A stretch of DNA of 64,000 nucleotides, from NCBI RefSeq assembly GCF_000027125.1, contig NC_017626.1; one strand, 5' to 3'. Below, one piece after another: positions 7,427-10,923 of this stretch. Every line of letters starts with the position of its first letter. Position 1 is the first letter of the stretch. The position numbers and the translations under genes were made by a program. The notes below the pieces were generated by a model. The model was not told where the DNA came from, did not search any database, and was given only the letters and a program-made list of their open reading frames with translations. The stretch comes from Escherichia coli 042 (GTDB lineage: Bacteria; Pseudomonadota; Gammaproteobacteria; Enterobacterales; Enterobacteriaceae).

Positions 7427-8254
7427 ATGACATTGCAACAACAAATAATAAAGGCGCTGGGCGCAAAACCGCAGATTAATGCTGAAGAGGAAATTCGTCG
7501 TAGTGTCGATTTTCTGAAAAGCTACCTGCAAACTTATCCGTTCATTAAATCACTGGTGCTAGGGATCAGCGGCGGTCAGGACTCCACGCTTGCCGGTAAG
7601 CTGTGCCAGATGGCGATTAATGAGCTGCGCCAGGAGACCGGCAACGAATCACTGCAATTTATTGCCGTACGCCTGCCCTATGGTGTTCAGGCTGACGAAC
7701 AAGATTGCCAGGATGCCATTGCCTTTATTCAACCGGATCGCGTATTAACCGTTAATATCAAGGGCGCGGTATTGGCCAGCAAACAGGCGCTGCGCGAAGC
7801 GGGCATTGAACTGAGCGATTTTGTTCGTGGCAATGAAAAAGCGCGTGAGCGGATGAAAGCACAATATAGCATTGCGGGCATGACCAGCGGTGTCGTGGTG
7901 GGCACCGATCATGCAGCAGAAGCCATTACCGGATTCTTCACTAAATATGGTGACGGCGGTACGGACATTAATCCGCTGTATCGTCTCAACAAACGCCAGG
8001 GTAAACAGTTACTGGCGGCATTAGGTTGCCCGGAACACCTTTATAAGAAAGCCCCAACGGCCGATCTGGAAGATGATCGCCCTTCTCTGCCAGATGAAGT
8101 GGCACTCGGCGTGACCTATGACAATATCGACGACTATCTGGAAGGGAAAAACCTACCTGAACAGGTCGCCAGAACAATAGAGAACTGGTATCTGAAAACC
8201 GAACATAAACGCCGTCCGCCAATTACCGTTTTCGATGATTTCTGGAAAAAGTAA
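7427..8254 (+). CDS. nadE: NH3-dependent NAD+ synthetase
   Basis: 275 aa ORF with SGGQDS PP-loop motif ([13 protein letters not shown]). Confidence 0.95.
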
Positions 8255-8292
8255 TAATTTGCACATATTGGTTTGTGCGAAAAAGAGTACTT

Positions 8293-8330
8293 TGTTCACG
8301 CCGGATGCGGCGTGAACGCCTTATTCGCCC
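8293..8330. repeat. REP (repetitive extragenic palindromic) element
   Basis: Sequence GTTCACGCCGGATGCGGCGTGAACGCCTTAT matches the E. coli REP consensus core GCCGGATGCGGCGTGAACGCCTTAT; intergenic between nadE and cho. Confidence 0.7.
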
Positions 8331-8450
8331 CACAAAACTATGCAAATTCAATATATTGCATGAGTCGAATAGGCCTGACAGGCGTAGCACGTCAGACGGT
8401 GTAACCTTTGTCATCAACCCGCCTCTTTTTTAATCGCTCCCCGCCTGTTA

Positions 8451-8470
8451 CACTGGATAGATAACCAGCA
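8451..8470 (+). promoter_or_regulatory. Candidate LexA (SOS) box upstream of cho
   Basis: CACTGGATAGATAACCAGCA, a CTGG-N8-CCAG palindrome resembling the LexA consensus CTGT-N8-ACAG, 14 bp upstream of the cho start; cho is a known SOS gene. Confidence 0.45.
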
Positions 8471-8483
8471 TTCGGAGTCAACA

Positions 8484-9984
<1,501 letters not shown>

Positions 9985-10750: not shown

Positions 10751-10923
10751 AAGAAAATTTGATGGAGAGTGATGAGAAAATATTACAACACGATGATTTT
10801 GCAGAGATTATGAAGAACTATACCGGATGACTGGTGATAAATAAAGCAAATAACCAGGATTAATCTGTATTAATTTATAAGAAAGTAACTTAATACCCGC
10901 AGAATGATTTCTGCGGGTAAGTA

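Follow-up and report, generated by a model that had tools for sequence, protein, structure and literature searches.

A conserved and previously known LexA operator upstream of cho (ydjQ) in Escherichia coli, with a putative extended -10 element overlapping its left arm

The window analysed here is a 64,000-nt stretch of the Escherichia coli 042 genome (contig NC_017626.1). Its open reading frames around the site of interest are those of chbB, osmE, nadE (7427–8254) and cho, followed, on the opposite strand, by ves, spy, and astE, and this gene order is the same in K-12 MG1655. Of 5426 complete E. coli genomes, 5425 have a match to the segment 8200–9400, and the annotations under the match are nadE, cho, and ves. 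The 295-amino-acid reading frame downstream of nadE matches the NCBIfam equivalog model NF007833 ('excinuclease Cho') with 578.3 bits (cut-off 367) over residues 1–287 of 295. The 3' ends of cho (plus strand, ending at 9371) and the convergent ves (minus strand, ending at 9331) overlap by 41 nt (9331–9371). The features referred to below are the following, with conservation counted in an alignment of 80 enterobacterial sequences:

8484..9371, plus strand: coding sequence of cho (ydjQ), GTG start, 295 amino acids, UvrC-homologous excinuclease; annotated cho by RefSeq in E. coli genomes
8474..8477, plus strand: Shine–Dalgarno sequence GGAG of cho (G in 73, G in 79, A in 79, and G in 79 of 80 sequences), 6 nt before the GTG
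8451..8470, no strand assigned: LexA operator (SOS box) of cho, the top matrix site and identical to a published motif
8446..8454, plus strand: putative extended -10 element that reaches into the left arm of the operator; its sequence is TGtTACACT here and TGnTAYACT in relatives
8423..8431, plus strand: the tract CTCTTTTTT, which lies some 20 nt before the -10 element (T8426 invariant, positions 8425–8430 conserved in at least 81 per cent of the 80 sequences)

An earlier note on this DNA drew attention to a CTGG-N8-CCAG palindrome just upstream of the cho start and took it for a LexA-type site. The 20-mer at 8451–8470, read from the window sequence, is CACTGGATAGATAACCAGCA, exactly as the note had written it; the palindrome occupies 8453–8468, and the 3' end of the LexA box lies 13 nt upstream of the GTG at 8484. 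The core CTG-N10-CAG is intact (CTG at 8453–8455, CAG at 8466–8468), and the spacer between them, GATAGATAAC, has A or T at 7 of its 10 bases. Three matches to the bare pattern CTGGN8CCAG are present in the 64-kb window (0.74 expected), so the pattern alone is weak evidence.

We therefore scored the site with a frequency matrix built from the 17 other E. coli LexA boxes published in Table 4 of PMC3009722, using the Berg–von Hippel heterology index (HI). The cho box has a leave-one-out HI of 7.93, which places it 12th of 18 in our own matrix calculation; the 17 published boxes span 0.6–12.8. With the range of experimentally validated LexA boxes taken as an HI of about 15 or less, both our value and the published one for cho (7.42) fall inside it. 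Across the 64 kb, the cho box is the top LexA-matrix site, and it is so in both orientations (HI of 7.93 and 8.90), with the runner-up at 12.38; composition-preserving block shuffles yield only 0.07 sites per 64 kb that score as well. No credible further LexA site was found in the matrix scan of both strands of the window. The next best match, at 10829–10848 in the spy–astE intergenic region (HI of 12.4), has no intact CTG/CAG pair and is probably due to chance.

Lists of the E. coli LexA regulon have long included this operator, a history that is also reflected in the gene names dinM and sosD. Table 4 of PMC3009722 shows the identical 20-mer, TACACTGGATAGATAACCAGCATTC, as the LexA motif that precedes cho, which was UV-induced on a tiling array; a 2026 preprint also reports UV induction. 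A 2019 review (PMC6590174) assigns cho (ydjQ) to the category 'Known SOS box' with reference to Fernandez De Henestrosa 2000 and Courcelle 2001, and PMC3820734 lists uvrA, uvrB, cho, and uvrD as regulated by LexA. An HI of 7.42 is given for cho (also known as ydjQ, dinM, and sosD) in the supplement of PMC11002266. In Salmonella, the ydjQ box has an HI of 6.69 and the gene is induced 3.33-fold by nalidixic acid. We take the LexA dependence and damage induction of cho from the literature, and LexA binding from secondary citations within it. The earlier note had treated LexA control of cho as a matter to check, whereas the answer was already in print. Dcm methylation of the operator, considered because of the 2026 preprint, was rejected: the 20-mer contains no CCWGG, and any effect of dcm on cho would therefore be indirect.

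The K-12 SOS box of cho (ydjQ, dinM, and sosD) is the same 20-mer, upstream of the same gene and at the same distance from the start codon; between the window and MG1655 there is no difference in the operator and only a few substitutions upstream of it, such as C for T at 8439. A search of the 5426 complete E. coli genomes finds the 55 bp around the box in 5411 of them, at an identity of at least 90 per cent. In the four E. coli sequences that we inspected, changes are limited to flanking bases or to C8451 to T, the latter giving a better LexA match. Two of the approximately 5400 cho-promoter matches in the E. coli collection are on records labelled as plasmids.

To look beyond the species, we scanned one genome per species (Escherichia, Salmonella, Citrobacter, Klebsiella, Raoultella, Enterobacter, Kosakonia, Leclercia, Cedecea, Buttiauxella, and other genera), which gave 80 loci with Cho relatives of 70–98 per cent identity, and aligned the upstream regions of the window and 79 relatives. 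In all 80 of these enterobacterial sequences a box lies at the same position of the orthologous promoter, with an HI of 3.0–9.8. A8452, C8453, T8454, G8455, C8466, A8467, and G8468 are invariant (80/80), so that ACTG and CAG each carry 2.0 bits per position, as against 0.1–0.3 bits at 8436–8444 in the same alignment. In the spacer, A8457, T8458, T8462, and A8464 are conserved in at least 91 per cent of sequences; for T8462, A8464, and also A8470, the figure is at least 94 per cent. The start codon column is conserved as well (G in 78, T in 80, and G in 79 of 80). This is a clear phylogenetic footprint with a built-in control (8436–8444), and, like the sequence of the site, its matrix score, and its uniqueness in the window, it is a direct observation.

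The two positions at which the earlier note saw a departure from the canonical half-sites are the ones that vary. At 8456, 49 sequences have G and 31 have T; at 8465, 53 have A, 26 have C, and one has T. The arms combine as CTGT/ACAG (28 sequences), CTGG/ACAG (25), CTGG/CCAG (24), CTGT/CCAG (2), and CTGT/TCAG (1). At this operator CTG/CAG never changes, whereas the fourth position of each half-site is free to vary, between T and G in the left arm and between A and C in the right.

Two assemblies in the scan stand out for other reasons. A contig assigned to 'Chryseobacterium sp. 18061' (L044, CACSKA010000006.1) carries an enterobacterial nadE–cho locus with the operator TACTGTTCGGATAAACAGTA, which is also that of 'Citrobacter sp. 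18056' (L070) from the same project; the 'Chryseobacterium' assembly is probably mislabelled or contaminated. The metagenome-assembled genome HRGM_Genome_0066 ('Citrobacter sp.') has two cho copies (L002 and L060), 98 and 77 per cent identical to that of E. coli, which suggests a chimeric bin.

Could the palindrome have arisen by chance and owe its conservation merely to an overlapping -10 element? The bare palindrome is, as noted above, not rare, and TA-ACT in the left arm doubles as a -10 hexamer. No promoter element, however, accounts for the invariance of the right-arm CAG or for the near-invariance of T8462, A8464, and A8470. The uniqueness of the matrix score in the window and the published induction and LexA regulation of cho likewise speak against a palindrome without regulatory role, and we give that explanation almost no credence.

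It is just as hard to credit that the symmetry reflects a hairpin in RNA or DNA (a 5'-UTR structure, an attenuator, or a cruciform) instead of a protein-binding site. CUGG and CCAG could form a 4-bp stem, yet the predicted fold of 8446–8500 is no better than that of shuffled sequences (z of -0.69; 44 of 200 shuffles as good) and does not use the CUGG/CCAG pairing, and on these grounds we rejected the RNA hairpin. Moreover, the inner pair is broken in 25 of the 80 sequences, where G stands opposite A; the left arm would not be transcribed if the -10 hexamer is 8449–8454; and no Rfam family overlaps the box.

We met no evidence that contradicts a LexA operator, and we are highly confident that the cho promoter of E. 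coli has a single LexA operator, at 8451–8470. The earlier reading of the palindrome as a LexA-type site serving cho thus holds, given the top matrix score, the 80-sequence footprint, and the literature.

The promoter itself can be placed more tentatively. Immediately upstream of the 20-mer, and outside it, all 80 sequences have G8447, T8449, and A8450, and 76 have T8446; this conservation suggests that TGnTAYACT at 8446–8454 is an extended -10 element. A scan of 8200–8600 with strict two-hexamer sigma-70 and terminator consensus patterns returned nothing, as expected of a promoter with a poor -35. We found no mapped transcription start for cho; the supplements of PMC3415461 give only an orthology row for b1741.

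The CTCTTTTTT tract at 8423–8431 is conserved almost as well as the operator. A GC hairpin stands immediately before it in many genera (for example GGCGGCGTAAGCCGCC in locus L021), and from this arrangement the tract is probably the U-tract of a nadE terminator; it possibly also serves the cho promoter as an A/T-rich -35 region. The terminator scan of 8200–8600 detected no nadE terminator in E. coli. The same string (CCGCCTCTTTT) appears in PMC3009722 as 'Motif 2' upstream of UV-induced genes, and this motif may be merely the tails of upstream terminators.

The nadE–cho intergenic region (8279–8431) contains REP/BIME-like inverted repeats, such as GCCGGATGCGGCGTGAACGCC at 8300–8320 and AGGCCTGACAGGCGTAGCACGTCAG at about 8370–8395, and folds far better than shuffled sequences (-60.6 kcal/mol; z of -5.07). 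Because other genera have only a short hairpin and a T-tract in this spacer, the repeats look like an insertion in the Escherichia lineage. The Rfam family ES036 (CssrF), an sRNA, matches 8334–8376 on the plus strand with 38.9 bits, just above the gathering score of 37.6 bits, and there is a weak match to naRNA4 at 8294–8330 on the minus strand; both lie in this REP-containing spacer.

The arrangement of operator and promoter suggests how LexA would act on cho. A LexA dimer would bind the CTG-N10-CAG palindrome at 8453–8468. As the operator overlaps the putative -10 (TGnTACACT, 8446–8454) and the likely start about 7 nt downstream, bound LexA would block RNA polymerase by promoter occlusion; both the -10 assignment and this geometry are read from conservation only. 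After DNA damage, RecA-stimulated self-cleavage of LexA would free the promoter and allow cho to be transcribed, and Cho would then act in UvrAB-dependent excision repair as a second nuclease for the 3' incision.

Compared with the consensus gammaproteobacterial LexA box, TACTG(TA)5CAGTA (found, for example, at sulA and umuDC), the cho box shares the core and the A/T-rich spacer, and it would likewise lie over its promoter; it differs in having C for T at position 1, G for T at position 6, G at position 10, C for A at position 15, and C for T at position 19. These departures predict a lower affinity and an earlier and smaller induction than at sulA or umuDC. The only other box with CTGG-N8-CCAG in both arms in the published list of 18 is that of ruvA, CGCTGGATATCTATCCAGCA, which serves another gene and has another spacer, and which is of similar predicted strength (HI of 8.5 for ruvA and 7.9 for cho in our own matrix). 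The ruvA promoter behaves biphasically, and an alternative sigma factor is suspected there, in a study that did not include cho (PMC5999292). The right-arm CCAG is also present in six of the 17 other known boxes. The label 'non-canonical' in the earlier note was overstated, given the intact CTG-N10-CAG, the ruvA precedent, the frequency of CCAG in right arms, and the alternation of these bases among relatives.

The weaker binding proposed for the site is a fair description relative to the consensus, from which the box departs more than the strongest ones do (published HI of 7.42; rank 12 of 18). With an HI of approximately 7.4–7.9 it is moderate to weak and resembles the operators of lexA itself: the supplement of PMC11002266 lists 7.25 and 7.45 for lexA, 6.23 for uvrA, 8.46 for uvrD, and 4.98 for recA. 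An operator of this strength predicts a prompt induction of low amplitude, not a late one. In a ciprofloxacin time course, the log2 fold change of cho was 0.21, 0.92, 0.93, 1.14, 1.59, and 1.49 at 1, 10, 25, 50, 75, and 120 min, respectively; induction was thus prompt and small, as such an operator predicts.

These data also bear on the further claim of late SOS induction, which had the direction wrong: in the standard model a weak operator is freed early and a strong one, such as that of sulA or umuD, late, and cho mRNA is already elevated at 10 min. One could still argue that the G and C substitutions make the operator unusually weak and atypical and that cho is for this reason a late SOS gene. 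The HI of cho is indeed above those of tight operators such as umuD and sulA (umuDC, with an HI of 2.77, is described as tightly regulated in the review PMC6590174), and the small maximum fold change of cho (log2 of 1.59) fits a report that maximum induction correlates negatively with HI. Against this, published models and measurements, including those of PMC5999292, agree that early induction goes with weak operators and late induction with strong ones; cho mRNA has already risen at 10 min, the first informative time point of the ciprofloxacin course; and its HI equals that of the operators of lexA, which is an early gene (PMC5999292). As to atypicality, only ruvA shares G and C at both inner positions, yet C in the right arm recurs in 6 of 17 boxes. 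We consider this reading as a whole very improbable.

A moderate-to-weak LexA operator may not be the whole of cho regulation. At position -13, within TG-C-TAYACT, C is present in 63 of 80 sequences; the window and K-12 have T. The motif TG-C-TAYACT resembles the extended -10 preferred by sigma-S. UV induction of cho was 36.6-fold in stationary phase and 2.4-fold in exponential phase according to the 2026 preprint, and our literature search found no paper linking ydjQ to RpoS. That the cho promoter is more than a plain LexA-gated sigma-70 promoter, with a sigma-S-type -10 embedded in the operator, strikes us as a speculative and rather unlikely proposal.

Overall, the cho LexA operator is real, conserved, already known, and ordinary. 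Our additions to the record are the 80-sequence footprint, the alternation of T with G and of A with C at the inner half-site positions, and the putative overlap of the operator's left arm with an extended -10, which is new but minor. The case is of value as a positive control, in that a genuine operator was picked from raw sequence by a reader working without tools, and it permits a correction, since the notion that a weaker box means later induction reverses the accepted rule. If the cho promoter does have a sigma-S-type -10, cho would be damage-inducible with an amplitude set by growth phase, through the choice of sigma factor at a -10 element embedded in the operator.
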